A stretch of DNA of 64,000 nt. Source: Truepera sp. (GTDB lineage: Bacteria > Deinococcota > Deinococci > Deinococcales > Trueperaceae). Positions within the stretch are counted from its first letter, which is position 1; the number at the start of each line of letters is the position of its first letter. Positions 8,227-28,929 of this stretch are shown here, in pieces. The translations under genes were made by a program, and so were the position numbers. Location: the NCBI GenBank assembly GCA_965218435.1, contig CBDCKW010000005.1, forward strand, positions 576,001 to 640,000, given 5' to 3'. A model generated the notes under the pieces. That model was not told the origin of the DNA and did no database searches. It was given only the letters and a program-made list of their open reading frames with translations.

Positions 8227-8260
8227 CTATGCGTGGCTACGGCCCGATAATGGCATAAGC
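8227..8260 (-). repeat. Conserved 34-bp site 'A' downstream of vapC (putative recombination site)
   Basis: Minus strand GCTTATGCCATTATCGGGCCGTAGCCACGCATAG; 24/34 ungapped identity to 27612-27645; imperfect terminal arms. Confidence 0.65.
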
Positions 8261-8299
8261 ACCAACAGTAAGCGGTCAGGTTTATGGAGTCGTACCCTA

Positions 8300-8689
8300 C
8301 TACTCCCAAAGAAGTGGGACATCGTAGTGACGAAACACGTCGTCCTTGCTCACAAGCGTCAATCCCTCGACGTTCGCTTGAGCGATGAGTAGGCGATCAA
8401 AGGGGTCCTTATGGTAGTCGCCAAGCTTCTCGAGTGCAAGAACATGTTGCAGGGAGACGGAAAGTACGCCTAGACCGTTCTTCTCCCTTTGCTCGCTTAT
8501 CAACGTCGAAAGAGGCGTTCGCAGCTCGAGCTTGCCCAAAGCGGCTTTGATCTGCATCTCCCAAGCGCTGACGACACTCAAGGTAATTTCGTGAGCAGGG
8601 TCTTGTAAGGTCTCAAGAAGTGAGTTGGGGAGTTGTTCGGCGTCGGCATCCCACCATAAGAAGGCGTGCGTATCCAGTAACAGCCTCAC
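8300..8689 (-). CDS. vapC: Type II TA toxin, PIN domain
   Basis: LLLDTHAFLW, SVVSAWEM, HKDPFDRLLIAQA, LVSKD. Confidence 0.93.
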   Translation of the reverse strand: MRLLLDTHAFLWWDADAEQLPNSLLETLQDPAHEITLSVVSAWEMQIKAALGKLELRTPLSTLISEQREKNGLGVLSVSLQHVLALEKLGDYHKDPFDRLLIAQANVEGLTLVSKDDVFRHYDVPLLWE

Positions 8690-8886
8690 TCGCCAAGCCA
8701 GAACTGTTCACCCAGGGGTGCATCGAAGTCATCTTTTATGTGTGCCGACCCACGATGCAGGTTTGGCTGACGAGTTCGGGGTTGCGACACTTTACGCTCG
8801 AAGAGGTAGCTGGCATAGTCGAAGACCTCTTCACGTAACTCGGCGGGAAGTTGGTCGATGAGTGTGTCGAGCGCCTTACGGTCCAT
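8686..8886 (-). CDS. DUF2281-type antitoxin
   Basis: LPAELREEVFDYASYL...G...IKDDFDAPL; GTGA overlap with vapC. Confidence 0.85.
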   Translation of the reverse strand: MDRKALDTLIDQLPAELREEVFDYASYLFERKVSQPRTRQPNLHRGSAHIKDDFDAPLGEQFWLGE

Positions 8887-8948
8887 AAAGACATGATAAA
8901 CGATGCCTACTCGAAACTCCTCTGGTTATGGTGAGTCCGGGCATCTTT

Positions 8949-8961
8949 GCAGCTATAGGCG
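8949..8961 (+). repeat. Partial inverted copy 'B' of the site, between recombinase and antitoxin
   Basis: GCAGCTATAGGCG vs site D minus strand GCAGCTAACGGGCCG and site F GCCATTATAGGGCGG. Confidence 0.35.
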
Positions 8962-8981
8962 TATGCATCATCTGGATGGGT

Positions 8982-9872
8982 CTACTGCGGGAAATAGCGT
9001 CGGTAGGTCGCCTGCCTCGATTCACCTGAGAGATGGACGTAAAGCTGTGTGGTGGTCGGCGAGGCGTGGCCCAAGATCGACTGTACTGCTGCAATAGGCG
9101 CATCCTGGTTCAGCAGAAGAGTCGCCAGGGTGTGCCGCAGAACATGGGGTGTTACTCGAGTCGCCAAACCGCATCTAGCAGCAACCCGTTTGAAGATACG
9201 CTGCATCTGCGAAATGCTGAGGCGCTGTCGGCTCAAGTTGCCGTTTTCTTGCAGGCGACGACGGTCGGTAACAAAAAGCGCTGAACTCAAATCCTCACGG
9301 TCATTGAGGTATCGCCTGAGCCAAAGCGCCGCCTTCGCACCAAAATAGACCTCTCGCTCCTTATTGCCCTTACCCAGCACAATCGCGCTGCGGCGCGTCC
9401 AGTCCACTTTGTCGTGGTTGAGTCCATGAACCTCTCCGACCCGACAACCGGTGGCAAAGAAAAACTCGATTAAGGCGTGCTCGAGCGGACTCTTGCAGGC
9501 GTCACGTAACAACTCGACCTCCTCGATGGACAGTGCCTTCGGAATGCGGTGAGGAAGCCGAGGCTCTTTGAGCTTTACAGCAGGGTTTCGTAGCAACACC
9601 TCTTCTTCGTGAAGCCACTTGAAGAACACTTTGACGACCCTAACCCTATTCGCCAGACTTGACGTCTTCAAGCGAGTAAAACCGGACAGGTAAGTGCGGA
9701 GGTGCTCGAGCCGAATCTGATCCACAAGCGTATCGCTTCCCAAACGCATAGCGAGGTGCTGGAGTTGTCGGCGGTACGAGTAAAGTGTTCGGGAGCTATA
9801 CCCATCGAGGCGTTTTGCCTCCAGGTAAGAGTGAATGACCGTAGTGAGCATTGGGGCGACAGACTGGTTCAT
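8982..9872 (-). CDS. Tyrosine recombinase/integrase (XerA/XerD-like)
   Basis: TGCRVGE (R), GKGNKER (K), HVLRH (HxxR), LGH, TTQLY (Y) all intact; GGAGG RBS before ATG 9872. Confidence 0.93.
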   Translation of the reverse strand: MNQSVAPMLTTVIHSYLEAKRLDGYSSRTLYSYRRQLQHLAMRLGSDTLVDQIRLEHLRTYLSGFTRLKTSSLANRVRVVKVFFKWLHEEEVLLRNPAVKLKEPRLPHRIPKALSIEEVELLRDACKSPLEHALIEFFFATGCRVGEVHGLNHDKVDWTRRSAIVLGKGNKEREVYFGAKAALWLRRYLNDREDLSSALFVTDRRRLQENGNLSRQRLSISQMQRIFKRVAARCGLATRVTPHVLRHTLATLLLNQDAPIAAVQSILGHASPTTTQLYVHLSGESRQATYRRYFPQ

Positions 9873-10000
9873 AAGAAACCTCCGAACCGTAGCTTGTCCG
9901 GAGGGCGTTCCAAACACACGCAAACCCGTAAGTTTTATAGCAGCGTCGCGCTCGATAACTGCATAACGACCTGCGCTTCACCCGCCGACAGATGTTCTAG

Positions 10001-11386
10001 TCCTTCAGTTGCAGTTAAAGCTTTTAAGCTGAGGCTATGACTAAACTTTCTTTGGATCAGGTGTGCAATTGGGCAGATGAACTTGATGACCTGTACGCCC
10101 GCATTGCCCCGCGCTTCACCCGAGCGGAGCCGCGGCGACGGGCGCGTTCTTATTTGCAAGGGTTACTGAGCCCGATCAAGCGCAAGAACGGCTGGCAGCT
10201 AGCGGAACAAGCCGGTGAAGCGACACCTTACGGTACGCAGCGGCTACTCAACGGCTCACAGTGGGACGCAGAAGAGGTGCGCGATGATCTGCGGGATTAT
10301 GTTGTGGAGCAGCTCGGCTCGGAAGAGGCCGTGCTAGTTGTCGACGAAACCGGCTTTCTGAAAAAGGGCGACCACTCGGTGGGGTCAAACGGCAGTATTC
10401 AGGTACAGCCGGACGCGTCGAGAACTGCCAGGTCGGAGTGTTTCTAGCCTATGCGAGTGAAGCAGGCACAGCGTTCATTGACCGCGAGCTGTTCTTACCC
10501 CGGGAGTGGGCAGATAGCGAGACGCGCCGGACTCAGGGCCAGGTTCCCGAAGACCGAGCGTTTCTGAGTAAACCGCAATTGGCGCAGCGGATGCTCGAGC
10601 GCACTTTCAAGGCGGGTGTGCAAGCGGCGTGGGTTACGGCGGACACGGTGTACTCCTCAGGAAAGATGCGACAGCTTTTAGAGAAACGCCAGCAACCCTA
10701 TATTCTGGCGGTACCTGCCAACTTCATGCTGCGGTTTATTGCTGAGGATGGGCTGCAGCAGCCCCGCATCGCCGAATTGTTCAAGACGCTAGGGTCACAA
10801 GCCTGGCAACGCTTATCGGCAGGCAGTGGTAGTAAGGGAGAACGTCTATACGACTGGGCGTGGCTAAGCTTGCGCAAGTTGAGCACGTCGCGGCCTGAGC
10901 TTGCGCCCCTTATCGAACCGGGATTCGACCGCTGGTTTTTGGCAAGGCGCAGCCTAGACGACCCTGAGGAACTCGCCTATTACGTCGTTTTTGCACCTCA
11001 GCCGACCACGCTTGCCGAGGCCGTTCGCGTCGCCGGTACCAGGTGGGTGATCGAGACCGGCTTTGAGGCTGTGAAAGGGGAAGCTGGACTCGCTGAGTAC
11101 GAGACCCGCTCATGGTCGGGCTGGTATCGCCATATCACCGTGTCACTATTGGCGCACGCATTCCTGAGCGCCATCCGTGCTCAGGAGGCTAAAAAAGGGG
11201 TGACGGAGACGGTAAACTTATCGCGTTGAGCGTGCCGGAAGTGCGGCACTTGCTTTGTCTGCTACTTTGGCATGACAGGCTGAGTCCACACGTTGTTCTA
11301 GCTTGGTCGTACTGGCAACGAAGGCACCAAGCTCATGCGAAACAGGCTCATTGCAGACGGCAAAAACGTCATCTGCAACTGTAGGA
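10001..11386 (+). mobile_element. IS701-family insertion sequence
   Basis: Terminal IRs TCCTTCAGTTGCAG / TCCTACAGTTGCAG; CTAG on both flanks (9997-10000, 11387-11390). Confidence 0.9.
10037..11384 (+). pseudogene. IS701 transposase, frameshifted
   Basis: [19 protein letters not shown]; one G missing at ~10381-10384 breaks [17 protein letters not shown]; second shift at AAAAAAGGGG ~11191 into the LSVPEVRHL...W.RRHQ tail. Confidence 0.85.
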
Positions 11387-11436
11387 CTAGTAAAAGAGAC
11401 GTGCTGCGTAAGGTCTGCGGAGCTGGAATCAACACG

Positions 11437-12432
11437 CTAAGAATAGTGTGCCTTTATACGCTCCACGGTAAAAGAAACAGTACTTCCTACAAGCTCCCGC
11501 AACTTAGGGTTGTCAGGGCGTCCAAGTATCCAGGCATTGAGCAATAGACGACGCGCCACGAAGAACGTCGAGAGTTGCAACTCCGCACCGGTCGCAAGCG
11601 GGCGGACACGCCGGTAGCCGGTAAAGAACGCTTGGCAGAGCGTCTCAAAGTCGTTACGATGCTCAACCTCGAGGAGCGACACCGCTACGTCGTACAAGAA
11701 ATGTCCCCAGCCACAGTCGTCGAAGTCAATGGCTCTGACGTTACCCTTATGAAACAGATAGTTCTCCTGGTGCAGATCTGCATGGATAAGGTTGAAGTCA
11801 CTGGGGTCTCGCCCTACCGCCGCTATTTCGCTCAACATGCGCTCGTAGGCGTGACGGAGAAAGTCGGCATCTTTCTTTGAACCGAATTGTCTACTTGTCT
11901 CCAAGCTTTCAAGCATCGTTTGGTTGTTAGGGTCTGCATATCTTACGACAGGTCTTGCAAAGTTTTCGGGGAGTGAGCCAGCCTCCGCGTGCTGGTGGAG
12001 TCTGGCCATTAAACTGCCTACTTGGTCAAACGTCGTGGGAGTCAACTGATTGCGGTGCTTAAAGCGTCCCTCAACCCAAGCAAATAGGACACAGCAGCGA
12101 GGGTCCGGGATACGCTCATCTTGGACGACCGTTAAGAGATCGTTGCTACGTGTGTTGACCGGCCCAGGTACAACTAAGCCGGTATCTTTTCTAAGTGCAA
12201 CCAGCCATTGCAGTTCGGAACGGACGAACTTTATGCCTTCCTCTCCAAGCGGTTGATGGACACGCAACGCGTAGCTTCCCTTGTCCGTGTCCACTCTAAA
12301 CACCGTATTCGTCCAGTGATGTAAGAGGGTGATTCGCTTAGGGTTTACAGCGTATTCACGCAGCGCCCTAACAGCAAGCAAACGAAGTCGGCGGGCTTGA
12401 CCTTGTGAGGCCAGATTCTCAAACGGTTTCAT
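11437..12432 (-). CDS. APH/homoserine-kinase-II-type phosphotransferase
   Basis: NTVFRV, YALRVH, ARLH, LIHADLHQEN, IDFDDCGWG. Confidence 0.88.
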   Translation of the reverse strand: MKPFENLASQGQARRLRLLAVRALREYAVNPKRITLLHHWTNTVFRVDTDKGSYALRVHQPLGEEGIKFVRSELQWLVALRKDTGLVVPGPVNTRSNDLLTVVQDERIPDPRCCVLFAWVEGRFKHRNQLTPTTFDQVGSLMARLHQHAEAGSLPENFARPVVRYADPNNQTMLESLETSRQFGSKKDADFLRHAYERMLSEIAAVGRDPSDFNLIHADLHQENYLFHKGNVRAIDFDDCGWGHFLYDVAVSLLEVEHRNDFETLCQAFFTGYRRVRPLATGAELQLSTFFVARRLLLNAWILGRPDNPKLRELVGSTVSFTVERIKAHYS

Positions 12433-13001: not shown

Positions 13002-13014
13002 CAGAAACGCTATT

Positions 13015-14493
13015 CTAACCAATACAGATTAGCTCCAAACTCATCATGCGAGCAAGCTTTCGAAGCTTAGTTGCCTGATGTCCTACTCCAAGAGCACAGT
13101 GGTGTGTTGGTCCTTGAGCGCACCATTCATTCATGAAGGTGGCAGGGTCAAGGCCAAACTTAAGCCTCGTATTGGTATTGCCAATCTGCATCGTTTCACC
13201 TTGAACAGCTTCCCCCTCCGCCACGATCATCTTGAGCTTTCCGTCCGCCGTTTGAGTTATCCCGAGAATAGTGACTGGTCCTAGCTTTACATTGAATTCG
13301 ACCGAGACGCCGAAACCGCGTTTGCCGTGATAAAGGCTTAAACCGCGTAAAACGGGCTTCTCGTCACTGGTAGCGACATGCCCGGGTCCGTCATGCCCCA
13401 TCAGGATAAAATCCTCGCTAAAGTCGAGCGCGTAAAACTCGGTGTACGAACCGCCCGCACCAAGCCGGTCAAGCAGCATCATGGCAACGCAAGTTTTTAA
13501 GTCTCCCTCACCCGCAGCGGGTATTCCGCGCGCAGTGAGAAGAGAGTTGCCCACGATTACCGACGCACCGAGTTCTTCAAAGGCGTTGCCGCCCAACCCC
13601 CGGTAGTAGTAGGTCAAACCTTGCAGATCGAAGTCCGAAACCAGTTTGTCTAAACCGCATGCAACACGGGCACTCCACTTGAGCTCGTCCGAGCTAACCT
13701 CTTGAGAAATCTGGTCGTGCCCCGGCTCGGCGATGTCAAAAACGCGCCTGATTTCAGCCAGCTTTGCCTGTATAGCCTCGTCCGTTGCCTCTTGTACGCG
13801 TACCTGCAGGTCGTCCATCTCTAACACTTCGATGTGGGTACCAAGCTGCGCATGGTGCATGGTGAAGTCTGAATACATATCGAGCATCCCGGGATAAGTG
13901 TGACCCAGAAACCCGATGCGGCTATAGCGAACAGCGCGCGTGACAGACGCAGCACTTACCCAGTTACCAATTTCTGTCCAGGCACGTTCAAAGTAACGGT
14001 TCGCCTGACCTTCAGCAGGCTCGAGCAGTCCTGTCACGACGTTAAAGGGAATCTTACTACGGGCGAAGGCGTTCGAGATTTCCGGCACACAGCAGGCTGC
14101 ACAGTTCGCAAGCCATTCGGCAGTGTCAGTGTTCAAGTAGTTGAGCGCGGGGACGGGCTGCAAGTTAAGCACCAGTACAGGCGCGTTCCGCCGCTGCACA
14201 GCAGGTAAAACTTGCGACGAAGTACTGTACGTACCTACATAACAGACAATGAGGTCGACATTCTCCCGTGTAAAAAAATCGCCTGCTGACTTGGCCTTGG
14301 GCGCGTCGTCTATGAGCCCAGCGGAGACGACCTCTGCTCCCAGCTCCCTCAGCCGTGTCTCGACGGCTTGTTGATAGCCCTCGAGCCTCTCCCTCAACCC
14401 TTCAAACTGGGGCCAGTAAGCTGCGAGGCCGACGCCGAACACACCGACGCGGGGTTTAGGTGACTCAATCCGGTTGAGCGTTGAGTGTGTCAT
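13015..14493 (-). CDS. L-fucose/L-arabinose isomerase family protein
   Basis: GEGD, FTE-like YTEFY, MGHDGPGH, GNTN, GPTHHCALGVGH. Confidence 0.85.
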   Translation of the reverse strand: MTHSTLNRIESPKPRVGVFGVGLAAYWPQFEGLRERLEGYQQAVETRLRELGAEVVSAGLIDDAPKAKSAGDFFTRENVDLIVCYVGTYSTSSQVLPAVQRRNAPVLVLNLQPVPALNYLNTDTAEWLANCAACCVPEISNAFARSKIPFNVVTGLLEPAEGQANRYFERAWTEIGNWVSAASVTRAVRYSRIGFLGHTYPGMLDMYSDFTMHHAQLGTHIEVLEMDDLQVRVQEATDEAIQAKLAEIRRVFDIAEPGHDQISQEVSSDELKWSARVACGLDKLVSDFDLQGLTYYYRGLGGNAFEELGASVIVGNSLLTARGIPAAGEGDLKTCVAMMLLDRLGAGGSYTEFYALDFSEDFILMGHDGPGHVATSDEKPVLRGLSLYHGKRGFGVSVEFNVKLGPVTILGITQTADGKLKMIVAEGEAVQGETMQIGNTNTRLKFGLDPATFMNEWCAQGPTHHCALGVGHQATKLRKLARMMSLELICIG

Positions 14494-14526
14494 GAGGACT
14501 CCTTAAAAGATGATTAAACGTTGGTT

Positions 14527-15450
14527 TCAGCCTGCGACGACCCGGTTCTCGAGCACCCCGATACCGCTCACTTCGGCGCGCATCACGTCACCGGCTTTTA
14601 GGTACTTGGGCGGGTCGAAACCTAGACCCACGCCGGGCGGCGTGCCGGTAGCGATGATGTCACCGGGCTCGAGAGTAAATAGCCCCGATAGGTAAGCTAA
14701 AATCTCGTTGACAGGGTTGAGCATATCGCCAGCCGGCGCATTTTGCCTCAGCTCACCGTTAACCCAAAGTTTGAGTTGCGCTCCGGCAGGGTCGAAGGCG
14801 TCCGCTGTGACCACCGCTGGGCCTAAGGGCGCGTAGCTGTCGCAAGTTTTACCCGCCACCCACTGCCCGCCGCGCTCGAGCTGCAAGTCCCTCGCGCTGA
14901 TGTCGTTGACGACTGTATAACCGAAAATGTAATCATGCGCGTCCTGAGCTGAAACGTCTTTCATGGTCTGCCCGACGATTACCGCCAGCTCGACCTCGTA
15001 ATCGAGCTTTTGCGTGTGCTTAGATAAGATAACCGGCTCGTTTGGCCCTACGATAGCGGAGGCGTACTTGCTAAAAAAGACGGGCGTTTCGGGCACCGCC
15101 ATCTTGGACTCGTCGGCGTGGGTCTGGTAGTTGAGGCCGATACCGATGAGCTTACCCGGACGCAGCAAGGGGGCGAGCAGCGCTACGTCGTCCTCACGCT
15201 GTGTAAAGTCGCCGCGCTCAGCTGCCCACGCTGCGACCTCTTGCGCGGCGACGCGAGCAACGTCGCCCAACTTGACGACGGTCTCGAGGTCAGAAAAAAA
15301 GGTTTTGGCTTTGAACTCAGCGTCGCCGGAGCGGGTTTCAAAAAGAGCTTTTGCGGCGAGGCGGAGGTCTAGAACGCCGCCGCCTGTCAACACGCCCAAA
15401 CGACTCTCGTAAGCCGGGCTCACCTCGGGTCTAAACGATACGAACTTCAC
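14527..15450 (-). CDS. Fumarylacetoacetate hydrolase family protein
   Basis: GIGLNY..H..E, LDYEVELAV, NDISARD, GK..D...PLGP, TGTPPGVG. Confidence 0.92.
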   Translation of the reverse strand: MKFVSFRPEVSPAYESRLGVLTGGGVLDLRLAAKALFETRSGDAEFKAKTFFSDLETVVKLGDVARVAAQEVAAWAAERGDFTQREDDVALLAPLLRPGKLIGIGLNYQTHADESKMAVPETPVFFSKYASAIVGPNEPVILSKHTQKLDYEVELAVIVGQTMKDVSAQDAHDYIFGYTVVNDISARDLQLERGGQWVAGKTCDSYAPLGPAVVTADAFDPAGAQLKLWVNGELRQNAPAGDMLNPVNEILAYLSGLFTLEPGDIIATGTPPGVGLGFDPPKYLKAGDVMRAEVSGIGVLENRVVAG

Positions 15451-15488
15451 GGGGTTTCCTTCATAGTGTCTCCTTCATCGGGTCTTTT

Positions 15489-16448
15489 TTACAATGCAAC
15501 CGGGCATCTGAGCGGGTGTCCTTGCAGCGCCCGCGCCGCTTCCTCTGCCGCCAGCTGTTGCAGGCGCGCGATAGCCCTTTCTGAATACCAGGCGATATGC
15601 GGGGTGAGGAGCAGGTCATCACTCTCACGCAGAGGTGAATTTTCAGGTAAAGGTTCTTCTTCAAAAACGTCCAGCGCAGCGGCGCGAATGTCGCCTGACT
15701 GCAGCGCCGCGACCAGCGCGTCCGGGTCGATCAGGCCGCCTCGAGCCGTATTCACCAGCACGGCGGTAGGTTTCATCTGCCCCAGTCTCTGTCGGTTGAT
15801 AAAGTGCCGCGTCTGCTCCGTTAAGGGAATGTGTAAGGTAATTGCGTCTGCTTTGGCAAGAAGCTCGTCTAACTCGGTGAGCGTCACGCCCAGTTCGTCG
15901 GCTTGCGTCTGGGACAAGTAGGGGTCGTAGACGAGAAAGGAGAAGCCGAACGCTTTCAGCCTCGCCACGACCTCGCTGCCGATACGCCCTAACCCAATCA
16001 GCCCGACGGTGGTTTCCTTGAAAGGCAACAGCGGTTTGGCTAGCTCGATACCGTCCCAGCGTCCTGCACGCACCCCCCGGTCAAGTGCGGGGATACGCCG
16101 CAGCAGGGTGAGCAGCAGCGCAGTGGTGTGTTCAGCCACCTCATCCATACAGTAGTCGGGGACATACGCGACCTTGACGCCGACCTCTTTGGCAGCAGCC
16201 AAGTCGATGGTGTCCACCCCGACGCCGTAACGCACGACGGTCGCGCCTTTGCCCAGGTGTTCCAGTACCTTCCGAGTGATGGGTGCAAACTGCGCTAAAA
16301 CGACCTCTGCGTCACCGACTGCCTCGATAACGTCGTTCTCGGTTTTACACTGATAGCCTTCGACCGACCCTCCGACTTTAGACAAGACATTTTGTTCGGG
16401 CTCGAGTGACGGAAAGGTGTAGTCCGTCACGACCACGCGGGCGCTCAC
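15489..16448 (-). CDS. D-2-hydroxyacid dehydrogenase (CtBP-like)
   Basis: RYGVGVD, GLIGLGRIG, VNTARG, LDVFEEEP, TPHIAW. Confidence 0.9.
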   Translation of the reverse strand: MSARVVVTDYTFPSLEPEQNVLSKVGGSVEGYQCKTENDVIEAVGDAEVVLAQFAPITRKVLEHLGKGATVVRYGVGVDTIDLAAAKEVGVKVAYVPDYCMDEVAEHTTALLLTLLRRIPALDRGVRAGRWDGIELAKPLLPFKETTVGLIGLGRIGSEVVARLKAFGFSFLVYDPYLSQTQADELGVTLTELDELLAKADAITLHIPLTEQTRHFINRQRLGQMKPTAVLVNTARGGLIDPDALVAALQSGDIRAAALDVFEEEPLPENSPLRESDDLLLTPHIAWYSERAIARLQQLAAEEAARALQGHPLRCPVAL

Positions 16449-17197
16449 GCCGTCACCGCCAAGTCTGCACGTTTGCGAAACGCCTCGTCGCGGAAGCTGA
16501 CCTCTTGTCCGGCAAGGTCGGCGGCCTCGTCGGTAAAGAGCCAGGCGAGGGCGCGGGCGACCTCTGCCGGCTCGGAGAGGGCTTCGCGGCTCAGCTTGCT
16601 CACTTCATTGAGGCCCGAGGCGCGGATTTCGCCCTGCATTTCGGTGTCCACCACGCCCGGACTAAAGCCGTAGACACGGGCGCGGGTCTCGAGCGCCAGC
16701 GAGTTTGTAAGCATCGCCAGACCTGCTTTACCCGTACAGTAGGCGCTCCACCCCTCGAGCGCCCGGTGCGCCGCCCCGGAACTCAGGTTGACGATGACGC
16801 CGCCCTTCATATGCGTCAAGGCCGCGTGACAGACGTTAAACGCACCTACGATATTCACCTGGATATTTTGCGCCCACGCTGCCGGGTCGGTGTCGGCAAA
16901 GGCGGCAATCGGGTGAATCACCCCAGCGTTGTTGATGACCCCAGTGAGACTGCCGAAGCGGTCTAAAGTTTCGTTGATGAGCGCCGTGACCTGTGCATAG
17001 TCGGCGACGTCACAGCCGACAGCGTGTGCCTGCCCGCCTGACCCCGTAATCTCGTCCGCAATAGTTTTGGTGGCTTCCGTACTCCGCGCGGCTAATACGA
17101 CTCGCGCACCCTGCCTTGCCAGCTCCCTGACCGTCGCCGCCCCGATGCCCCGGCTCGAGCCCGTCACGATAATGACGTGATTTTCTAAAGTTGCCAT
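16445..17197 (-). CDS. Short-chain dehydrogenase/reductase
   Basis: TGSSRGIG, NNAG, SSGAA, YCTGK, PGVVDT; start at ATG 17197. Confidence 0.88.
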   Translation of the reverse strand: MATLENHVIIVTGSSRGIGAATVRELARQGARVVLAARSTEATKTIADEITGSGGQAHAVGCDVADYAQVTALINETLDRFGSLTGVINNAGVIHPIAAFADTDPAAWAQNIQVNIVGAFNVCHAALTHMKGGVIVNLSSGAAHRALEGWSAYCTGKAGLAMLTNSLALETRARVYGFSPGVVDTEMQGEIRASGLNEVSKLSREALSEPAEVARALAWLFTDEAADLAGQEVSFRDEAFRKRADLAVTA

Positions 17198-17199
17198 CC

Positions 17200-17514
17200 T
17201 CAGTCCATATGCCACTGCAAGGGCAGCAGGTAGGGAAAGTTCGTCGTCGGGTCGGTTTCGACTTTCATCACAGGCGTCATCGACTCGCCCCAACGCGCGT
17301 TGACTTCGCTTTTACCTAGTGCCTCGGTGGTTCCTTCGAGGTCGTCCGTTTCAAAATAACCGAACAACGTCAGGCCATGCCGAAAAATCGAATAGTTGCT
17401 AATGCCCACCTCACGCAGCGCCTCAACCATCTCAGGCCAAATCTCGTCGTGCCGTCTTTTGTACTCTTCTTCGTAACCGGGCCGCACTTCTAACACCCAT
17501 GCATACTGCGCCAT
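17200..17514 (-). CDS. rhaM: L-rhamnose mutarotase family protein
   Basis: EEYKRRHDEIWPEM...GISNYSIF...LFGYFE...W...M. Confidence 0.85.
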   Translation of the reverse strand: MAQYAWVLEVRPGYEEEYKRRHDEIWPEMVEALREVGISNYSIFRHGLTLFGYFETDDLEGTTEALGKSEVNARWGESMTPVMKVETDPTTNFPYLLPLQWHMD

Positions 17515-17517
17515 GTT

Positions 17518-20661: not shown

Positions 20662-21734
20662 GAAATCGCCTCGACTCGTCCCGACTTCGCCGACTTGTGC
20701 GCGGCTTCGATCACCTCGACCGCCCGCTGCGCGACCTCACCGGGGGCGTCGTTCGCCACCTGTTCTCCTAAGCAGATTTGGACGAAGCGCTCCAAGGGCT
20801 GATAGGACTCGTAAGCGCCGTCGCCGTCCTCGAGCGGCACAATCATATGGTTTCCGTCGTGCCGCCGCAGCTCCAGACGTTCTCGTTCGATGTCCAGGAG
20901 CATCACGCCTTCAGTACCGAAGATACGAAGGTCGATCTGGTACTGCTTGAGGTCGATGCCGTCCGTAGTCGGTTTCGGCAGAGTCGCAGCGCCGGACACC
21001 ACGCCCGTCGCGCCGTTTGTAAAACGCAGGTTGATGGCGTCGTAGTAGTCCACGCCGGTCGGTGACAGGCCCATCCAAGCGAAAACTTCTTTGGGCTCGA
21101 GCGGTACCGTACCGAACAGCAAACCCAGCGCGTGACAGAGCTGCCCGTAGCCGTAGCCCCCGGCCCGTTCCGGGTCGGCCCAGGTCGAGGCGGGTGGGCG
21201 AAAGGTCGCGCCTTCGGTCTCGAGCATCCCCTCGCCGCCGAACAGGTCGCCTAGAGCCGAGGCCATCTGACACACCACGTGGCGCACCTCGCCGAGTTGC
21301 GGCGCGAGGCGGCGCGCTTCGCGGGCGAAGGGGCGAAAGCTCCAGCCCTGGGGGATCATGATCTGTTTACCCTGTTCCTGGGCGAGGGCGACGAGTTCGC
21401 GGGCCTGGTCGCCGCGCACCGTCAGGGGCTTTTCGACCAAGACGTGCTTGCCGCTTTCTAACACCGCCTTGGCGTGTTCAAAGTGGTTGATGTGCGGCGA
21501 GGCGACGACCACGCCGTCTAGGTCGAGTTGGACGAGTTCTCGGTAGTCTTCGGTCGCGTGTTCAAAGCCGAACTGCTCGCGGACAGCTGCCAACTCTTCT
21601 CGTCCTAAACGGCAGACACCGACCAGCTCTACATCGTCTCGCTCCTTAAAAAAGGGCAGCTGAACGCTGGTCGCCCACCATCCCGCGCCGATAAAGCCGA
21701 GGCGCGCGCTGTCTTTCATGGTGCCTTTGTTCAT
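20658..21734 (-). CDS. Gfo/Idh/MocA family oxidoreductase
   Basis: GFIGAGWW, VASPH..HFE, HVLVEKP. Confidence 0.9.
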   Translation of the reverse strand: MNKGTMKDSARLGFIGAGWWATSVQLPFFKERDDVELVGVCRLGREELAAVREQFGFEHATEDYRELVQLDLDGVVVASPHINHFEHAKAVLESGKHVLVEKPLTVRGDQARELVALAQEQGKQIMIPQGWSFRPFAREARRLAPQLGEVRHVVCQMASALGDLFGGEGMLETEGATFRPPASTWADPERAGGYGYGQLCHALGLLFGTVPLEPKEVFAWMGLSPTGVDYYDAINLRFTNGATGVVSGAATLPKPTTDGIDLKQYQIDLRIFGTEGVMLLDIERERLELRRHDGNHMIVPLEDGDGAYESYQPLERFVQICLGEQVANDAPGEVAQRAVEVIEAAHKSAKSGRVEAIS

Positions 21735-22447
21735 AAAGCCTCCTTTTGCCGGTCATACGCTTTCTTTACTCGCTCCAAATGACGCTGCATGGCGCGGCCT
21801 GCGGCTTCCGCGTCGCGCGCTTCGAGCGCCTGATAGATGGCGGTGTGGTCTTCATGACTGCGTTCCCGCACGCCGGGCAAGTTCACCGTCAGGCTCCGGC
21901 TGGCGCGGGTCAGCACGCTTAAACTCTGCACAATCTGTTTGAGTAGGGTGTTACTCGCTGCGTCGGTGATGACCTTGTGAAAGGCAATGTCGAGTTCGAG
22001 AAACGCCTCCGGGTCGTCAAGGACTGTTTCCCCCTCAGCGACGTAACATTTGAGCTGCGCGAGGTCTGTGTCGCTCAGGTGTTCGGCTGCGAGTCGCGTC
22101 AGACCGGCCTCGAGCACTGCGCGCGCTTCGAAAAGCATGTCGAGGTTGTCCGCCTCTAAGCTCACCAAAAAGTGCAGCGGCTGCAAGAGGCGCTCCGGAC
22201 TCAGCACGGCAACCCGAACCCCGTCGCCCTGACGAATATCGAGTACGCCGAGCAGCGACAGCGCCCGGAGCGCCTCCCGCAAACTGGGCCTGCCGACGCC
22301 TAACTGCGCCGCCAACTCACGTTCAGCCGGCAAGCGGTCTCCCGGTTTGAGGACGCCCGCCTGAATCAACCCCAAAACGCGCTGTGTGACCTGTTCGGCA
22401 ACCCCTTGTTTAGCGATGAGTTGCTCGAGGCCGCCAGGAGCTATCAA
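21731..22447 (-). CDS. FadR/GntR family transcriptional regulator
   Basis: LKPGDRLPAERELAAQLGVGRPSLREAL; FCD domain D..FH, H..I; TTG start overlapping the upstream TGA is inferred. Confidence 0.9.
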   Translation of the reverse strand: MIAPGGLEQLIAKQGVAEQVTQRVLGLIQAGVLKPGDRLPAERELAAQLGVGRPSLREALRALSLLGVLDIRQGDGVRVAVLSPERLLQPLHFLVSLEADNLDMLFEARAVLEAGLTRLAAEHLSDTDLAQLKCYVAEGETVLDDPEAFLELDIAFHKVITDAASNTLLKQIVQSLSVLTRASRSLTVNLPGVRERSHEDHTAIYQALEARDAEAAGRAMQRHLERVKKAYDRQKEAL

Positions 22448-23451
22448 CTTCCCATAACACGGGTACGCAGCTGGTCGAGACCGACGGCAAGCAAAAGGAC
22501 GACGCCCTGAGTCACGTCTTGCCAAAAGCTCGAGACGTTTAAGAGCACCAGCCCGTTGTTGAGCGTCCCGAGGATTAGAACGGCGAGCAGCGTCCCCCAG
22601 ATGCTGCCGCGCCCCCCGTAAAGACTCGTCCCGCCTAAAATGACGGCGGCAATGACCGTAAGGATGCTGTCCGACGCGGCAGTCGGCGCGCTGGCGCGGA
22701 GCATCGCCGCTAGCACCAGCCCGCTCACCGCGCCGCTGATTCCGGACAGGATAAAAAGCCGCGTCAGCACCCGGTTGACCGGAACGCCCGAGAGCCGACT
22801 CGCTTCTTTGTTACCGCCCGTCGCGTAAACGAAGCGGCCAAAACGTGTGCGCACCAGCACCCAAAAGAGGACGATGAAGGCGACGACCATCACGATAAGC
22901 GGAACGGGGACCCCCAGAACTCGCCCGGAGCCGATAAAAGTAAATCCTTCCGAGAGCAGCGGTTTGGTCAGGCCGCCCGTCAAGACGAGCGCGACACCTT
23001 CGCAGATACTGAGCATCCCCAAGGTGGCGATCAGCGCGTTGATCCCGACCCGAGTGACGAAAAAACCGTTGACCCAGCCGATTCCGGCGGCGACGAGCAG
23101 GGCCACCAAACAGGCCAGCCAGATGCTCCACCCGGCAGCGGCGAGCAGGCCGACGATCACCCCGCTCAACCCGGCAATCGCCGCGACGGACAAGTCCATC
23201 CCCCCGGCAATAATCAGGAGCGTCTGGGTCGCCGCCATCAAACCGATAAAAGCCATGTTGTTGCCGATACTCAGCAGGTTTCTGGTCGATAAAAAGAAGG
23301 GTGACAACACGGAAAAAACGATCATCAGGACGACGTAAAAGACAAGCAGCACGCCGACCCCGGCCCACGGTTTATTCAGCAGGTTACGCAGCGAGGCGTT
23401 CCCGGACGCGCCGCGCCCAGGGTTAGAGCTCCTTAGCTTGGGTTGCGACAT
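22444..23451 (-). CDS. Monosaccharide ABC transporter permease (RbsC-like)
   Basis: GGMDLSV, TRFGR..YATGGN.EASRLSG, IAAVILGGTSL.GG.G. Confidence 0.92.
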   Translation of the reverse strand: MSQPKLRSSNPGRGASGNASLRNLLNKPWAGVGVLLVFYVVLMIVFSVLSPFFLSTRNLLSIGNNMAFIGLMAATQTLLIIAGGMDLSVAAIAGLSGVIVGLLAAAGWSIWLACLVALLVAAGIGWVNGFFVTRVGINALIATLGMLSICEGVALVLTGGLTKPLLSEGFTFIGSGRVLGVPVPLIVMVVAFIVLFWVLVRTRFGRFVYATGGNKEASRLSGVPVNRVLTRLFILSGISGAVSGLVLAAMLRASAPTAASDSILTVIAAVILGGTSLYGGRGSIWGTLLAVLILGTLNNGLVLLNVSSFWQDVTQGVVLLLAVGLDQLRTRVMGS

Positions 23452-24931
23452 CTAACAGCTCCTTTGTTTTGACGCCGCGCCGATATTCGCCGACGAGCAC
23501 GCCCCTGTTGAGTACGATCGACCGGTCGCACATCCCTTCGATCTCTTCGGCGTCCGTAGAGACAAGCAAAATTGCCATCCCCCGGTTTGCCAGCGTTTTA
23601 AGTTCCGCGTAGATTTCTTTGCGCGCCCCAACGTCTACGCCGCGCGTCGGTTCGTCCATGATCAAAAGGTCGACCCCCTCGACCAGCCAGCGGGCGATGC
23701 AGACTTTTTGCTGGTTGCCGCCACTTAGGTAACGGAGCTTTTGACCCGTCCCCCGGGCCTTGATCGATAGCCCTTTCATCCAGCGGTCCACGTATTCGTC
23801 TTCGGCCTGGCGGGAAACGTTGCCAAAGGTTGTGTAGCGTTCTAAAAAAGCCAGCGTCATGTTTTCGCGCACGCTCATGTCGGGGACTACACCCTCGGCC
23901 TTGCGTTCAGCGGCGATGTAGCCGATGCCCAAAGCTTTGGCCTGCATGGTGGTGGTCATGCTAAAAGGCTGCCCCTTAAAGCGAACCTTGCCCCGGACAG
24001 GTTTTTCCGCTGCGCCGAAGAGTGCCTTGCCGAGCGTGCCGATACCTGAACCGATCAGGCCGAACACGCCTAAGATCTCCCCTTTTTTTAGCTCGAAGCT
24101 TACGCCGTAAAGGACGCCTTCGATACTTAAATCCTCGACCTCGAGCAACGTTTCACCGTGTGGGGTTTGTTCTTGGGGATAAAGGTCGTCTACGGCGTTA
24201 CCGACCATCGCCAGCACCACATCCGCGTGAGACGCGTCTTGCGTCCGGTATTCGCCGGTCTTTTCACCGTCGCGCAAAACGACGATGTGATCGGAAATTT
24301 TAAAAACCTCGTTAAGATAGTGAGAGATATAGATGACGCTGACGCCGCGCGCGCACAGACGCCCGATGACTTCAAACAGCCGCGCGACCTCCTGGTTCGT
24401 CAGCGACGCGCTTGGCTCATCCATGACCAGGACGCGGGCGCGGCCTGCGAGGGCGCGGGCAATCTCTACCACGCGCTGCTCGGGAACCGACAGGTCTTTG
24501 ACGAGGGTTCTAGGGTCGACCTCGAGCCCGAGCTGAGCAAGCAGTTCACGCGCTTCTTCGCGCATCCGTTTGGTGTCGAGTTGAAGTAGCCCGAGCTGCC
24601 GTTTGAGCGGCAACTGTCCAATAAAGATATTTTCTTCGACGCTCATCTCGGGGATAACCGAGATTTCTTGCGGCAGCATCCTTACGCCCTTCTCAATAGC
24701 TTCAAAGGGCGTGTTAAAAACGGTCTCTTCACCGTCTAGCTGCACCACACCGTCGTCGCGAGTGTATTCCCCGCAAAGGATTTTAATAAGTGTCGATTTG
24801 CCCGCCCCGTTCTGGCCCAATAGGGCCAGAACTTCACCTTCACCCAAACTGAGGTCGACGCCTTTTAAGACGGGCACGCCGCCGAAAGACTTCCAGATAC
24901 CCGACATCTCGAGGCGTGAAGCAGGTGTCAC
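23423..24931 (-). CDS. Monosaccharide ABC transporter ATPase (RbsA-like, two domains)
   Basis: GQNGAGKST, MDEPS, LSGGNQQK, DEPTRGVDVGA. Confidence 0.95.
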   Translation of the reverse strand: MTPASRLEMSGIWKSFGGVPVLKGVDLSLGEGEVLALLGQNGAGKSTLIKILCGEYTRDDGVVQLDGEETVFNTPFEAIEKGVRMLPQEISVIPEMSVEENIFIGQLPLKRQLGLLQLDTKRMREEARELLAQLGLEVDPRTLVKDLSVPEQRVVEIARALAGRARVLVMDEPSASLTNQEVARLFEVIGRLCARGVSVIYISHYLNEVFKISDHIVVLRDGEKTGEYRTQDASHADVVLAMVGNAVDDLYPQEQTPHGETLLEVEDLSIEGVLYGVSFELKKGEILGVFGLIGSGIGTLGKALFGAAEKPVRGKVRFKGQPFSMTTTMQAKALGIGYIAAERKAEGVVPDMSVRENMTLAFLERYTTFGNVSRQAEDEYVDRWMKGLSIKARGTGQKLRYLSGGNQQKVCIARWLVEGVDLLIMDEPTRGVDVGARKEIYAELKTLANRGMAILLVSTDAEEIEGMCDRSIVLNRGVLVGEYRRGVKTKELLDVATQAKEL

Positions 24932-24934
24932 CGG

Positions 24935-26116
24935 CTACTCTGTAGGGATGATGGCTTCGTAGCCCGCGTAGTTGGGGTTGGCGCGGACGCTCTCCAAGTG
25001 TGCTTGATACGCGTCTTGGGGAAACTCGTAGGTAAAGTCCGGGTAGCCTTCCGGCGTTTTACATTCGCGGTCCTTGTAATACTCACAGACGTTCATCGGC
25101 GTCACCATCACGTGCTTGACGAGCACAGCGGCGGGCACCTCTTGCCCTGCCAACGTTGCCAGCGCCGTCGGGATAAGGTAGTTTCCGTAACGCTCCGGGA
25201 AGTATCCGGGCGAGGCGATAAAGTCGGGCTCGCCGGTCAAGCTGTCGAGTTCATCTGCACCCATACCGACGAACAGCGCGTCGCCCTCGCGTCCGGCAGT
25301 CTGCACCGCGCGCAACATCCCGGTGGTGGCTTGGTCGTTGATCGCAATGCCCATGACTGGAACATCTTCGGGAATACGGCCTAGAGCGTTACTCATCTGG
25401 CTGAAAGACTCCTCGAGCGTGTTTTTGGTGTCGATTTCGATAATGTGATCCTCTGGAAAGCCCTCAGCCGAGGCGAGAAATCCTGCACGCTGCCCCCCTG
25501 TACGCAGTGCCGGGATTGCGCCAGACTGCGGCAGTGCCCCGATAACCAGGTACCCGTCGTTTAGGCGGTCGCCGAACTTTGCTTGGGCAGCTTGCGCCAG
25601 GTAAGACCCGCCCATAAAGCCCGAACGCGGGTTGTTCGCACCGAAAAAGGTCGCGCCCTCCATCGGGATATCGATAGCGATCACCGGAATATCCGCATTA
25701 TTGAACTCTTCCATGATCACGGAGCCGAAGTTCGCGTCGGTTTGAAACTCTATTACGAAGTCAACGTTACGCTGCACAAAACTCTGAGCATTTGAAAGCG
25801 CAGTAGGGCCGTCAAGCCGGTTGTCGGCAATAACCAGTTCGATACCTGCTGCCTTAGCATTTTTCACAATCCCTTGCTCTGTCAAGATGCCGAAGGCAAT
25901 ATCACGCTGCAGGTTGGCAAAGGCAAAAACGTAATTTTCCCCGTTTTTAGGGGGCGTGACCTCTTTGGCTGCCGCGACCATCTGCTGCAGCGTTTCGGCG
26001 TTCAACATCTCGCCGTCGTAGGTCTCTGGGCTGAAGCCGAAAAAATCCTGAGCTGACGCGAGACTCGAGCCGAGTAGTAATACATATACAAGAACTACGA
26101 AACTTACAACTTTCAT
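24935..26116 (-). CDS. Sugar ABC transporter substrate-binding protein
   Basis: Signal peptide; periplasmic binding protein type I pattern (VIAIDIP, GAN, IND). Confidence 0.85.
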   Translation of the reverse strand: MKVVSFVVLVYVLLLGSSLASAQDFFGFSPETYDGEMLNAETLQQMVAAAKEVTPPKNGENYVFAFANLQRDIAFGILTEQGIVKNAKAAGIELVIADNRLDGPTALSNAQSFVQRNVDFVIEFQTDANFGSVIMEEFNNADIPVIAIDIPMEGATFFGANNPRSGFMGGSYLAQAAQAKFGDRLNDGYLVIGALPQSGAIPALRTGGQRAGFLASAEGFPEDHIIEIDTKNTLEESFSQMSNALGRIPEDVPVMGIAINDQATTGMLRAVQTAGREGDALFVGMGADELDSLTGEPDFIASPGYFPERYGNYLIPTALATLAGQEVPAAVLVKHVMVTPMNVCEYYKDRECKTPEGYPDFTYEFPQDAYQAHLESVRANPNYAGYEAIIPTE

Positions 26117-26221: not shown

Positions 26222-26388
26222 CACCGAGCATATTTGAGAGCTAGAAAAGAAACCAGGAAAGTGCGTGGCCGCGCTCGTATGGTTCTAGAGCGGGTGAGGC
26301 ATAAGGCAAGTAGCCCGCTCAGCTGCTCAGCACTCTTTGCTTACACGACAGGCGCAGGTATATACAGGAAAGCCTTCATTTGTAGAGG

Positions 26389-27607
26389 TGACCTGACCCC
26401 GATAGCGGAACCAGGATCATCTTAAGTCAAAAGCCAATTTGGTATAGCAGGGTTCGGCAGGATCAGCCAAGCCTCAGGAGCGGGAGGGCGGTAGCAGTTG
26501 TAGTGATCTCGCCAGTGGGCGATGAGGATCTGGGCTTCATTCGAGGGAAGTGAAGACCTCGCCATTCAGGAGTTCGTATCTGAGCTTGCCTTTAAATGAT
26601 TTGATGTAGCCGTTTTCTCAGGGGCTACCCGGTTTGATAAAGAGCATGTTGATCTGCAGGCGTTTGAGCCAGCGTTTCACAGCCTTAGCGCAAAACTCAG
26701 GACCGTTATCGCTGCAGATATGTGCCAGTGGACCTTTGCGGAGAAACAGTTCCGAGAGCGTTTCCAAGACGCGGGTCGAGTTGAGTTTGCGTTAAAATCT
26801 GATCGCAAGACATTCACGAGTGAATTCATCGACGACCGTCAGCATCCGAAATCCTCTGCCGTTGCTGGTCTTATCGGCGACAAAGTCATACGCCCAGACG
26901 TGTTCCTTGTGTTCAGGTCTAAGTCTGAGACACGAGCGGTCACTCAACCATAGCCGTCTGAGCTTGGGCTGTCTGACAGGAACTTTGAGTCCCTCCTGAC
27001 ACCATGTCCGCTGGATGCTCTTGCTGTTGATAGCCAACCCTGAAGTCTTAGTAAGACAGTGATCCGGCAATAGCCATAACGCCCATACTGCTTGGCGAGA
27101 TCGGTAATCACTGTCGTTAAGCGTGTCTCATCAGACTTGACCTTAATGACTCGACATTGAACCGAGCGATGTTGACCCAATGTCCGGCGCGCTCTACGCT
27201 CTGACACCCCTAAACGCTCGCCCACCGCGTTGACACAATGGCGGCGGCGTTCAGGGCTCAAAAGTTTTCCTTGGCCGCCTCTTCCAAAATTAGCTTGTTC
27301 AAAGTTAAGTCAGCTACTGCTTTACGAAGCCGAGCGTTCTCTCTCTTGACTTCCTTCAATCGTTCGTTTAGCTTGATCGACCTGCATGCCCCCGTACTCT
27401 TTTCGCCACCGGTAGTAGATGACTTCGCTGACCTGTAGCGTGCTGACCACCTCGGCGACGCTTGCCCCTTTATTCAGCCGTACCTCGACTTCCCGGAGTT
27501 TGCTGATAATTTCCTTTGGCTTATACGTCTTCTTAGGCATTTCTACCCCGACTAAAATTAATCTGGCGCTATCAATGCGCCTGGATTCCTTTTAGAAAGT
27601 CAGGTCA
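26389..27607 (-). mobile_element. Degenerate IS3-family (IS407-group-like) element
   Basis: TGACCTGAC termini at both ends; orfA MPKKTYKPKEIISKLREVE..YYRWRKEYGG; orfB pieces YGRYG, HVWAYDFV, VVDEFTRECL; several frameshifts. Confidence 0.88.
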
Positions 27608-27611
27608 TCCT

Positions 27612-27645
27612 CTCTGCGGCACTTCGGCCCGTTAGCTGCTTAAGC
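27612..27645 (-). repeat. Conserved 34-bp site 'D' downstream of the second vapC (putative recombination site)
   Basis: Minus strand GCTTAAGCAGCTAACGGGCCGAAGTGCCGCAGAG; 24/34 ungapped identity to 8227-8260. Confidence 0.65.
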
Positions 27646-28015
27646 TTTCCGACTAGCGTTCGATCCAGTTCTCGACCTGCAGGCCGCCAATACGCTCGAA
27701 GTGACGCAGGTTCCCCGTGATGACTACAAGATTGTGTTCGAGCGCGGTTGCAGCAATCATCAGATCAGCGTCTGCCAGCCGCTCGCCACGAACTTCCAAA
27801 GCAGCTTTCAGTTCTCCGAACCGTTCCATTTCGGCCGTGCTGAGAGGGATAGCTAGAAGCAGCGCCCTTAGGCTGTCCACCTCAGCTTTGCGCTCGGTGC
27901 GCCGCTCACTTTTTGCCGCGCCGTAGTACAGCTCTCCGATGCACACACTACTCGTGCAGAGTGCGCTTAAGGGAGCGCCAAGCAGCTTTTGCCGAACGTC
28001 CTCACGACCACGGAG

Positions 28016-28583
28016 CTAAACAACACACCGACTAAAGTCGGAGGGTTTGAGGCAACGACTGAAAGTCAGGATACGGGTCGTAGACCCGTTAGCCCTCTGT
28101 CTTGAAGTTGTCGTCTCGGGTCGGTTCGAAGTGGTGCTCCAAATAGCTTTTGATCATTTCCTCCGTTACCTGTCCCACCGTTGCACAGAAGTATCCCCTC
28201 GCCCAGCAGTGCCGCCCCCAGTACCTCGCTTTTAGCTTCGGATACTCCTCGAACAGCTTGCTCGCACTCCGCCCCTTGACACGCCTCATGATTTCGCTCG
28301 GTGCCATCGTCGGCGGAGCACTTACCAAGATGTGTACATGGTCACTACTGACTACTCCGCTCAGTATTCGTATCTCGAACGCTTCGCAGGTTTGCCGTAC
28401 CAGTTCTCGCACTCGCTCGGCAACATCACCCTTCAGCACCTTGTAGCGGTATTTCGTCACCCATACGAAGTGGTACTCGATGTTGAAAACTGTCTGACTG
28501 CCGTAGCGGTATGCCATTCACCAAGGCTAACAGATGAAATCTGACCGCCTAAAGGCGGTGGCTTTAACCTTACACTTGGAATA
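28016..28583 (-). mobile_element. IS200/IS605-family element (tnpA only, 568 bp)
   Basis: Inserted 3' of TTAC with no target duplication; subterminal hairpins ACCGCCTTTAGGCGGT (left end) and CCGACTTTAGTCGG (right end); ends in TTAG. Confidence 0.9.
28089..28517 (-). CDS. tnpA: IS200/IS605 Y1 HUH transposase
   Basis: YHFVWVTKYR, DHVHIL (HUH), KGRS, WARGYF, IKSYL (catalytic Y). Confidence 0.93.
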   Translation of the reverse strand: MAYRYGSQTVFNIEYHFVWVTKYRYKVLKGDVAERVRELVRQTCEAFEIRILSGVVSSDHVHILVSAPPTMAPSEIMRRVKGRSASKLFEEYPKLKARYWGRHCWARGYFCATVGQVTEEMIKSYLEHHFEPTRDDNFKTEG

Positions 28584-28622
28584 GTAAAACACCAACGTGT
28601 CGGTATCAAGCAGGTAGGTCAT

Positions 28623-28850
28623 TTACAGATCAACGTCACGGCCAAATGATCGTTCTGGCAGAAGGTCTTTATCGGCAAGCGGTTCATCTCGCCATACCCC
28701 GGAGAGGCTGGCAAGTGGATGCGCTTCGCCAATCGCATCGCTTTTGCTAGCTACGCGTCTAGCGAGGAGGAAAGCTGCGAAGTCCTCGACCTCCTCGCGC
28801 AAGTCTGGAGGTAGGGCTGCGAGTGTGCGTTCAAGCTTTACATCGGCCAT
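28623..28850 (-). CDS. DUF2281-type antitoxin
   Basis: LPPDLREEVEDFAAFL; its stop abuts the vapC ATG at 28622. Confidence 0.82.
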   Translation of the reverse strand: MADVKLERTLAALPPDLREEVEDFAAFLLARRVASKSDAIGEAHPLASLSGVWRDEPLADKDLLPERSFGRDVDL

Positions 28851-28853
28851 AAC

Positions 28854-28868
28854 GCCATTATAGGGCGG
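28854..28868 (+). repeat. Inverted copy 'F' of the site core; overlaps the antitoxin -10 box
   Basis: GCCATTATAGGGCGG vs site A minus strand GCCATTATCGGGCCG (13/15); its reverse complement contains TATAAT 6 bp before the ATG at 28850. Confidence 0.5.
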
Positions 28869-28870
28869 AA

Positions 28871-28929
28871 TTATTGAGGAAAGTAACGTCGGTAAGTCGC
28901 TTGCCTCGATTCGCCGGAGAGGTGGACGT
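28871..28929 (-). pseudogene. 3' remnant of a second tyrosine recombinase, paralogous to 8982-9872
   Basis: Encodes VHLSGESRQATYRRYFPQ*, identical to the first recombinase C-terminus; 48/59 nt identity, all differences at third codon positions. Confidence 0.9.

Follow-up and report, generated by a model that had tools for sequence, protein, structure and literature searches.

The window, a 64,000-nt stretch of a Truepera sp. genome (GenBank assembly GCA_965218435.1, contig CBDCKW010000005.1, positions 576,001 to 640,000 of the forward strand; G000:C5:576001-640000 in our labels), holds on its minus strand an intact gene for a Xer-like tyrosine recombinase, followed by genes for a DUF2281 antitoxin and a VapC toxin of the PIN family, and then by a short quasi-palindromic site. 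The initial annotation of this DNA saw a second such module about 19 kb away and proposed a cassette system outside the IntI family, in which a conserved platform carries different cargo bounded by dedicated sites, as in integrons or shufflons. Below, C2, C3, C5, C7 and C9 are contigs of this genome (G000), G numbers denote Deinococcota genomes, 61 of which make up the set for enzyme and site counts, and L numbers denote loci of recombinase homologues.

The recombinase has a core-binding and a catalytic domain, the R-K-H-R-H-Y residues, and no arm-binding domain, and is thus a simple tyrosine recombinase. Five residues (R144, K168, R246, H269 and Y278) do not vary among 38 homologues, and H243 hardly does; we take these six to be the catalytic residues, as is usual for the family. 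The protein falls below the curated cut-offs for XerC (201.6 of 335), XerD (195 of 329.6) and XerA (191 of 220), and its score with the IntI model TIGR02249 is 92.3 bits against a cut-off of 265. Its nearest relatives are in Trueperaceae, and the best relatives of solved structure are XerD (1a0p) and XerA (5hxy). The I2 helix, described in the available part of PMC7790495 as the step to single-strand recombination in IntI, is missing: only nine residues separate the WLRRYL and LFVT motifs, and the predicted model (pLDDT 87.7) is without an extra helix. In Trueperaceae enzymes a short beta-hairpin is inserted behind the LFVT motif; it is missing from the aligned Bacillota sequences.

Module 1 stands as first described, intact and in the order recombinase, DUF2281, PIN toxin and site (8227-8260) on the minus strand. 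A site of a second class, L, lies 63 bp ahead of the recombinase start and forms the outer boundary; because the recombinase and vapBC are flanked by this L site and by site A of class R, they constitute one L-to-R module. Both sites noted initially (A and B) are real, while the L site, a further R site and the division into two spacer classes were missing from that account; all four window sites are on the minus strand (Table 1). Elsewhere in the genome, C5:68178-69006 holds a further recombinase copy, which is broken.

Module 2, taken at first for a parallel platform with a recombinase gene of its own, proved to be a relic wrecked by insertion sequences (IS). The recombinase gene is reduced to its final 58 bp, which abut an IS110 remnant, and the last 18 amino acids are the same as in module 1, as had been noticed. 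The vapC gene is split by an IS200 element (about 28010-28575, tnpA 28089-28517), with its 5′ piece (MTYLLDTDT) at 28575-28622. The two VapC proteins had been called quite different, and BLASTP indeed gave no alignment between them with the 3′ piece of VapC2 as input; the two antitoxins are 43% identical over 30 aa. An IS3-type element starts 5 bp from site B (window 27607-27612), and IS1202-family elements are reportedly found 5 bp from pdif sites, the sites of the Acinetobacter dif modules. A second broken IS3-type element, at 29576-30443, adjoins the IS110 remnant.

Table 1. Sites, modules, cargo and insertion sequences in the window
Feature	Position	Strand	Remarks
Cargo: AraC regulator, short-chain dehydrogenases, aldo-keto reductases	1..8168	.	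between R site A and next L
Site A, class R: TTATGCCATTATC GGGCCG TAGCCACGCATAG (13-6-13)	8227..8258	-	25.4 bits
VapC PIN toxin 1	8300..8689	-	PF01850
DUF2281 antitoxin 1	8686..8886	-	PF10047
Xer-like tyrosine recombinase, intact, 296 aa	8982..9872	-	PF00589
Class L site: TTATGCAGTTATC GAGCGC GACGCTGCTATAA	9935..9966	-	25.6 bits
DDE_5 insertion sequence, CTAG ends	9997..11390	+	later insertion into cargo; IS-free joint in run X3
Phosphotransferase gene (APH family)	11437..12432	-	PF01636; cargo between R 12688 and L 9935
Class R site: TTATGCAGAGGTT GGGCCG GTTACTTGCGTAA	12688..12719	-	27.5 bits
Broken IS3-type element, begins 5 bp past site B	26389..27607	-	HTH_Tnp_1, rve; inverted ends read
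Site B, class R: TTAAGCAGCTAAC GGGCCG AAGTGCCGCAGAG	27612..27643	-	22.6 bits
vapC 2, two pieces	27653..28622	-	IS200 inside
DUF2281 antitoxin 2	28623..28850	-	PF10047
Recombinase remnant, last 18 codons and stop	28872..28929	-	58 bp, 83% DNA identity, last 18 aa identical
IS110 transposase remnant	28930..29527	+	PF02371; in place of remaining recombinase and L site

Two classes of site in alternating arrays

The two copies first noted, 8227-8260 and 27612-27645, agree at 24 of 34 positions. Used as seeds for a weight matrix, they led to 62 genome positions above 19 bits (seeds included), compared with 2 in a reversed-genome control, and by this search the shared site is not a chance likeness. 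With tandem partner sites added to the matrix matches there are 63 distinct sites in G000, 43 on C5, 13 on C9, 6 on C7 and 1 on C3, a count that leaves out an intragenic match (C9:1770070) and duplicated copies on C2 and at C5:250-290 kb. Large near-identical duplications (C5:16-44 kb with C5:258-286 kb, and C2:39-52 kb with C5:176-188 kb) may be biological or made by the assembly, and their sites were counted once.

Each site is a 32-bp quasi-palindrome composed of a 13-bp arm starting with TTATGC, a 6-bp spacer, and a looser, mirror-image 13-bp arm. The spacer defines class L (33 sites, with GAGCGC in 27) and class R (30 sites, with GGGCCG in 25), and it holds the best-conserved columns of the site, the arms diverging. 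Sites are largely intergenic, with centres inside an open reading frame of at least 150 aa in 6 of 63 cases, compared with 70% of random positions nearby. Many partner sites in this genome are decayed. Plain repeat finding did not pick the sites up, and Rfam had no family at them in eight G000 loci and six array loci.

Neighbouring sites, defined as those no more than 12.5 kb apart, are on the same strand in 41 of 43 pairs, and L and R alternate in 36 of these 41 (p 4e-7), or in 24 of 29 when tandem pairs are set aside (p 3e-4). Twelve pairs stand in tandem, 34-38 bp apart and always L then R; their L sites are set apart by a distinct right arm. R came directly after L at 9 of 31 L sites; the reverse tandem order, R then L, was sought at 31 L and 24 R sites and found at none. 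Ahead of the window the array continues with four L.R junctions (C5:566252-572595), and the L site next to site A is that at C5:572595, 3.4 kb ahead of the window. A fixed platform with a single downstream site is not supported; the recombinase and its toxin-antitoxin (TA) pair are themselves one L-R module among genome-wide alternating sites. What survives of the proposal is the Xer-like enzyme outside the IntI family, the variable cargo and the sites unlike the attC sites of integrons.

From R to the next L, the cargo includes an ABC transporter with a two-component system, DinB, hydrolases, phosphotransferases and TetR-enzyme pairs. Of the five cases of cargo from L to R, four are TA modules: two of Xre-RES, one with a PIN toxin, and the recombinase-vapBC module. 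The DDE_5 element of the window is IS701-like. Large clusters for sugar uptake and catabolism occupy window positions 13015-26116 and 30483-62394, the former flanked by two R sites with no L detected between them. Sites C9:2083063 and C9:3260848 sit at the edges of core genes that we read as smpB-like and dnaX-like; in G005 a decayed L adjoins smpB, and in G002 an R adjoins dnaX, with different DNA beyond each. At the orthologous smpB and dnaX junctions some relatives have sites and others none, divergence being too high for a clean empty allele.

Breakpoints, homologues and Bacillota arrays

Five natural breakpoints fall at spacers. A 1068-bp Xre-RES module at C5:93220 and C7:4875 is 98.6% identical from the first base of L to 2 nt past the R spacer; its ends at sites and this identity together indicate recent movement. 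The recombinase module of the window matches C5:68094 from the spacer of its L site (9935-9966) onward. Between C5:566252 and a decayed R at C5:374263, the match starts with the first base of the R spacer. A 1.95-kb cassette common to G000 and G005 stops at the L spacer, its other end being without a site in G005, and a 1.8-kb segment common to the Bacillales arrays L017 and L189 stops at the spacer of class 1, one of two classes there, its other end not being at a site. Bacillales cargo homologues on three plasmids yielded no clean two-ended cassettes.

The full enzyme was found in three of the 61 Deinococcota genomes, and all three have sites. Matches to the L/R pattern number 34 in G000, 26 in G002 and 10 in G005, with one or two in nine other genomes and none in 49. 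With homologues that are about 70% identical, the spacers shift to GCGCGC/GGCCCG and the 35-bp tandem spacing is the same (G004, G064); this second pattern gives nine distinct sites in G008, three in G036, and one each in G004 and G038. A site array at L143 (G064:C8:40000-59999) has the palindromic GCGCGC spacer, which is directionless and could allow inversion. Sites occur just upstream of the enzyme at L001, L002, L013 and C5:68094, and weakly at L012. Variable cargo beside homologues, as the initial annotation would have it, was seen at some loci: DUF1016 in L001, Xre-RES in L002, PIN and GNAT in L005.

In the recombinase tree a single clade (100/99) unites the Trueperaceae enzymes, close to Alicyclobacillus-type proteins, and the sister group consists of Bacillales array enzymes plus some other members. 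The initial annotation had mentioned cassette-like arrays with CGGG-core spacers in Bacillales, and such arrays exist. A matrix seeded on L017 gave 344 strand matches over 18 loci, with 4 in the control, and distinct sites number 19 at L017, 36 at L179, 32 at L189 and 14 at L183. Tandem pairs in ten Bacillales arrays run from class 1 to class 2 in 33 of 43 cases and in reverse in one, by strand and class rules that were set after the spacers had been seen. None of the 36 sites on plasmid CP053689 (L179) is inside a listed gene, the intervening genes being mostly small and co-oriented; L017 and L179 both contain co-oriented single-gene cassettes. Spacer pairs track the recombinase subclades, whose members are kin and not an independent test; the held-out L027 has spacers as in its sister L179, with a noisy control (8 matches vs 3). 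At 18 outer loci of the enzyme family there were 3 matches and 6 in the control. The strict Bacillales pattern occurred in 7 of 151 genomes, with no more than 3 matches each, against 6 control genomes, and the enzyme in 8 of 151; because matches are near the control level, this pattern is too narrow for a co-occurrence test.

At L179:21313-23275 a group II intron interrupts a class-1 site in its right arm; integrons likewise have group II introns that target attC. The sequence carrying it, CP053689.1, is labelled Arthrobacter citreus; its recombinase falls among Bacillales proteins, and the label may be wrong. Tandem sites in L017, L189 and further Bacillales arrays are spaced 43-72 bp apart, and by eye their filler often resembles an intrinsic terminator, with a hairpin and then a T run, features that are not present in the Trueperaceae filler.

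Proposed cassette exchange and competing readings

We read these arrays as a double-stranded gene-cassette exchange system run by the Xer-like recombinase of the window, and put the probability of this at about two in three. Taken by itself, the claim that some tyrosine recombinase uses the sites for crossover is very likely. Tyrosine recombinases exchange strands only between sites with matching spacers, and such matching is also needed at pdif sites, according to the available part of PMC13141974. The enzyme would bind the two 13-bp arms and exchange strands across the 6-bp spacer, with only like spacers recombining. An L-to-R segment alone could then not be excised; an L-L or R-R event would remove or insert two segments, usually one cargo and the filler of about 30 bp in a tandem L.R junction, and this junction would act as the cassette boundary. 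A crossover at L and then one at R would swap the intervening segment, so that filler could be replaced by a TA pair or by the recombinase-vapBC module. In Bacillales, single genes between sites of the same class would be simple excisable cassettes. The anatomy and the breakpoints are observed, whereas cutting of the sites by this enzyme, circular or cointegrate intermediates, the two-step exchange and its direction are inferred, as is the role of the TA modules, which probably lend the arrays stability. An alternation of L and R sites in direct orientation, combined with spacer matching, would account for the fixed order, the tandem junctions, the breakpoints at both classes and the presence of modules in the filler position. 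More tentatively, and at somewhat less than even odds, this may be recombinase-mediated cassette exchange occurring in nature, an undescribed class of platform across Bacillales and Trueperaceae in which one Xer-like enzyme serves two heterospecific double-stranded sites.

Several findings weigh against the enzyme-driven exchange just described. No recombination was observed. Assembled contigs of four runs over C5:569600-589500 gave 102 joints, and none of the 15 listed coincided with a site; such contigs drop rare forms, so that this count speaks neither for nor against exchange. The main doubt is on attribution, since the enzyme implies sites but sites also occur without the enzyme: it was not found in G002 (26 sites), G005 (10) and G036 (about 5), and the completeness of G005 and G036 is 98-99%. 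G004 has the enzyme and only two strict-pattern sites, and a different tyrosine recombinase (C3:46649-47644) occurs in 5 of 61 genomes (G000, G002, G005 in part, G036 and G009). The far end is off-site in two of the five breakpoint pairs, and some cargo homologues are without sites (C9:908929-910803, G002:C52, L207, L208). Five same-strand neighbours in G000 fail to alternate; alternation is not strict in Bacillales, which show long runs of one class; and most Alicyclobacillaceae loci have 0-4 sites and no long array, mostly one site just past the enzyme. C7, finally, is a 12-kb contig possibly derived from a co-binned strain.

The sites could instead be worked by another enzyme, either the C3 recombinase or host Xer as at pdif, the window recombinase being cargo. 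The C3 family is present in all three relatives having sites without the window enzyme, and a third recombinase type lies 190-640 bp from L sites C5:160989, C5:371957 and C7:11712. We nevertheless consider this unlikely, for the 5.8 kb (G000) and the 10 kb (G036) searched on either side of a C3-type gene revealed no site, and the C3 type was not found in G004 and G008, which have both sites and the window's enzyme family. No XerD above its cut-off was found in any of the five genomes searched. The site architecture, moreover, accompanies the window's family into Bacillales, and spacer pairs follow its subclades, kin though these are, as they also do in the held-out L027.

A third recombinase family (C5:370481) was considered and set aside, as it does not track the sites, occurring in 4 of 61 genomes and not in G002. 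Tyrosine recombinases of a family other than the window's, with AbrB-like/VapC pairs, adjoin L sites at C5:367964-371787, C5:160403-160834 and C7:11941-12330, twice back to back.

It is quite improbable that the motif is a dispersed repeat (REP- or MITE-like) or the debris of a dead system, with cargo turned over by IS elements and homologous recombination. Module 2 and the copy at C5:68178 are broken and ringed by IS elements, decayed partner sites are many, and sites persist where the enzyme was not found, all of which such an origin would suit. The recent movement of the Xre-RES module and the one intact enzyme copy point the other way, as does a spacer that is nearly invariant while the arms diverge, unlike a copied repeat.

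A true integron variant, with the tandem L.R unit being attC-like and recombining as a folded single strand, would suit the integron-like layout with its co-oriented single-gene cassettes (L017, L179), the intron in a class-1 site (L179) and the beta-hairpin insert of Trueperaceae. We judge it very improbable. The folding of twelve tandem units does not exceed that of shuffled sequences (mean z -0.08 for the top strand and 0.01 for the bottom), so that they are not attC-like, and no fold was found for the four window sites. With the I2 helix also missing and the score of the IntI model so low, the initial view of a non-IntI enzyme with sites that are not attC-like has held on both counts; the beta-hairpin is missing from Bacillota, and breakpoints occur at both spacers.

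Hardly credible is a repressor operator or terminator of vapBC operons, which the initial annotation had named as a possible undoing of its proposal and which could claim the position of both first-noted copies 3′ of vapC, the dyad formed by the arms and the terminator-like filler of Bacillales: a site lies within 1 kb of only 3 of 14 vapC homologues and is therefore not a TA operator, no terminator was called at site A in terminator and promoter scans that stayed at chance level, and a 6-bp centre that is asymmetric and invariant, falls into two classes and coincides with homology breaks is not what marks an operator.

Comparison with known systems

Cre/loxP, Flp/FRT and engineered recombinase-mediated cassette exchange use 13-bp arms and a directional spacer, and heterospecific spacers permit exchange and block excision. 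Like Cre/loxP and Flp/FRT, the arrays described here have one simple tyrosine recombinase, 13-bp arms and two non-matching spacers that bracket a segment; they differ in a spacer of 6 bp instead of 8 bp, in degenerate arms and in dozens of natural copies per genome, and the enzyme is Xer-like by its best solved relatives, not Cre-like. With shufflons and invertible cassettes (Rci, Fim, Gin) they share a dedicated recombinase with short repeated sites adjacent. The shufflon analogy drawn at first breaks down on orientation, as neighbouring sites are almost always direct, not inverted, and no evidence of inversion was found at these sites.

A literature search that took in few subscription papers and no supplements found no description of such a two-site system, and the available part of a classification of tyrosine recombinases (PMC8138268) has no mention of one. 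The arrays are thus probably an undescribed variant of cassette-exchange systems, and the site family itself is real. Their Bacillales repeats may already be catalogued among the bcr repeats of Bacillus cereus, which PMC6542083, in the part available, names without sequences.

Integrons are extremely rare in Firmicutes for reasons that are unclear, as stated in the accessible portion of PMC9024848. Arrays of 14-36 sites beside the enzyme in Bacillales suggest an alternative to integrons that searches for IntI and attC have missed. If this is true, arrays of dozens of genes are built where integrons are almost absent, and two crossovers might capture linear DNA imported by competence without homology. 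Because the site is short with a clear consensus, such arrays can be mapped, tested and mined for small adaptive and defence genes, and a compact recombinase with natural non-crossing spacer pairs that differ between subclades would serve as a cassette-exchange tool.

As far as integrons are described in the parts of PMC7790495 and PMC9024848 available to us, the likeness is in small accessory genes, often co-oriented, in arrays beside a tyrosine recombinase, and extends to TA cassettes, enzyme-less arrays (CALIN) and a site-inserted group II intron. The I2 helix and a folding attC are missing here, and no single attI with a cassette promoter was identified, a consensus scan of 8100-10100 being at chance level; there are, moreover, two spacer classes, the enzyme is itself within a module, and Trueperaceae cargo is often multi-gene, in either orientation and with its own regulator.

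The dif modules of Acinetobacter, bounded by pdif sites with a 6-bp spacer, acted on by XerC/XerD and arranged as paired, alternating module types (PMC13141974, in the portion available), come closest in logic. Both systems have sites with a 6-bp spacer and two types that alternate, although the alternation seen in G000 is not strict in Bacillales; dif modules have double-stranded sites that recombine only with matching spacers, and their two types move in pairs, as our reading would have it here too. In both, TA cargo is common and single modules are replaced, in dif modules through cointegrate formation and resolution and here, on our reading, in a comparable manner. They differ in that our arrays would be served by a single recombinase of their own, which lies within the array, whereas dif modules depend on host XerC and XerD, and in that the arms are here 13-bp, quasi-symmetric, start TTATGC(R) and point outward-in, compared with C and D boxes of 11 bp (11-6-11). 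Neighbouring sites are here direct and have two fixed spacers, in contrast to the inverted orientation and varied spacers of pdif; tandem pairs arise here from a minimal filler module, and in Trueperaceae and Bacillales the arrays are carried by chromosomes and large replicons. The Truepera arrays combine a logic like that of dif modules with a layout like that of integrons, and are a member of neither.

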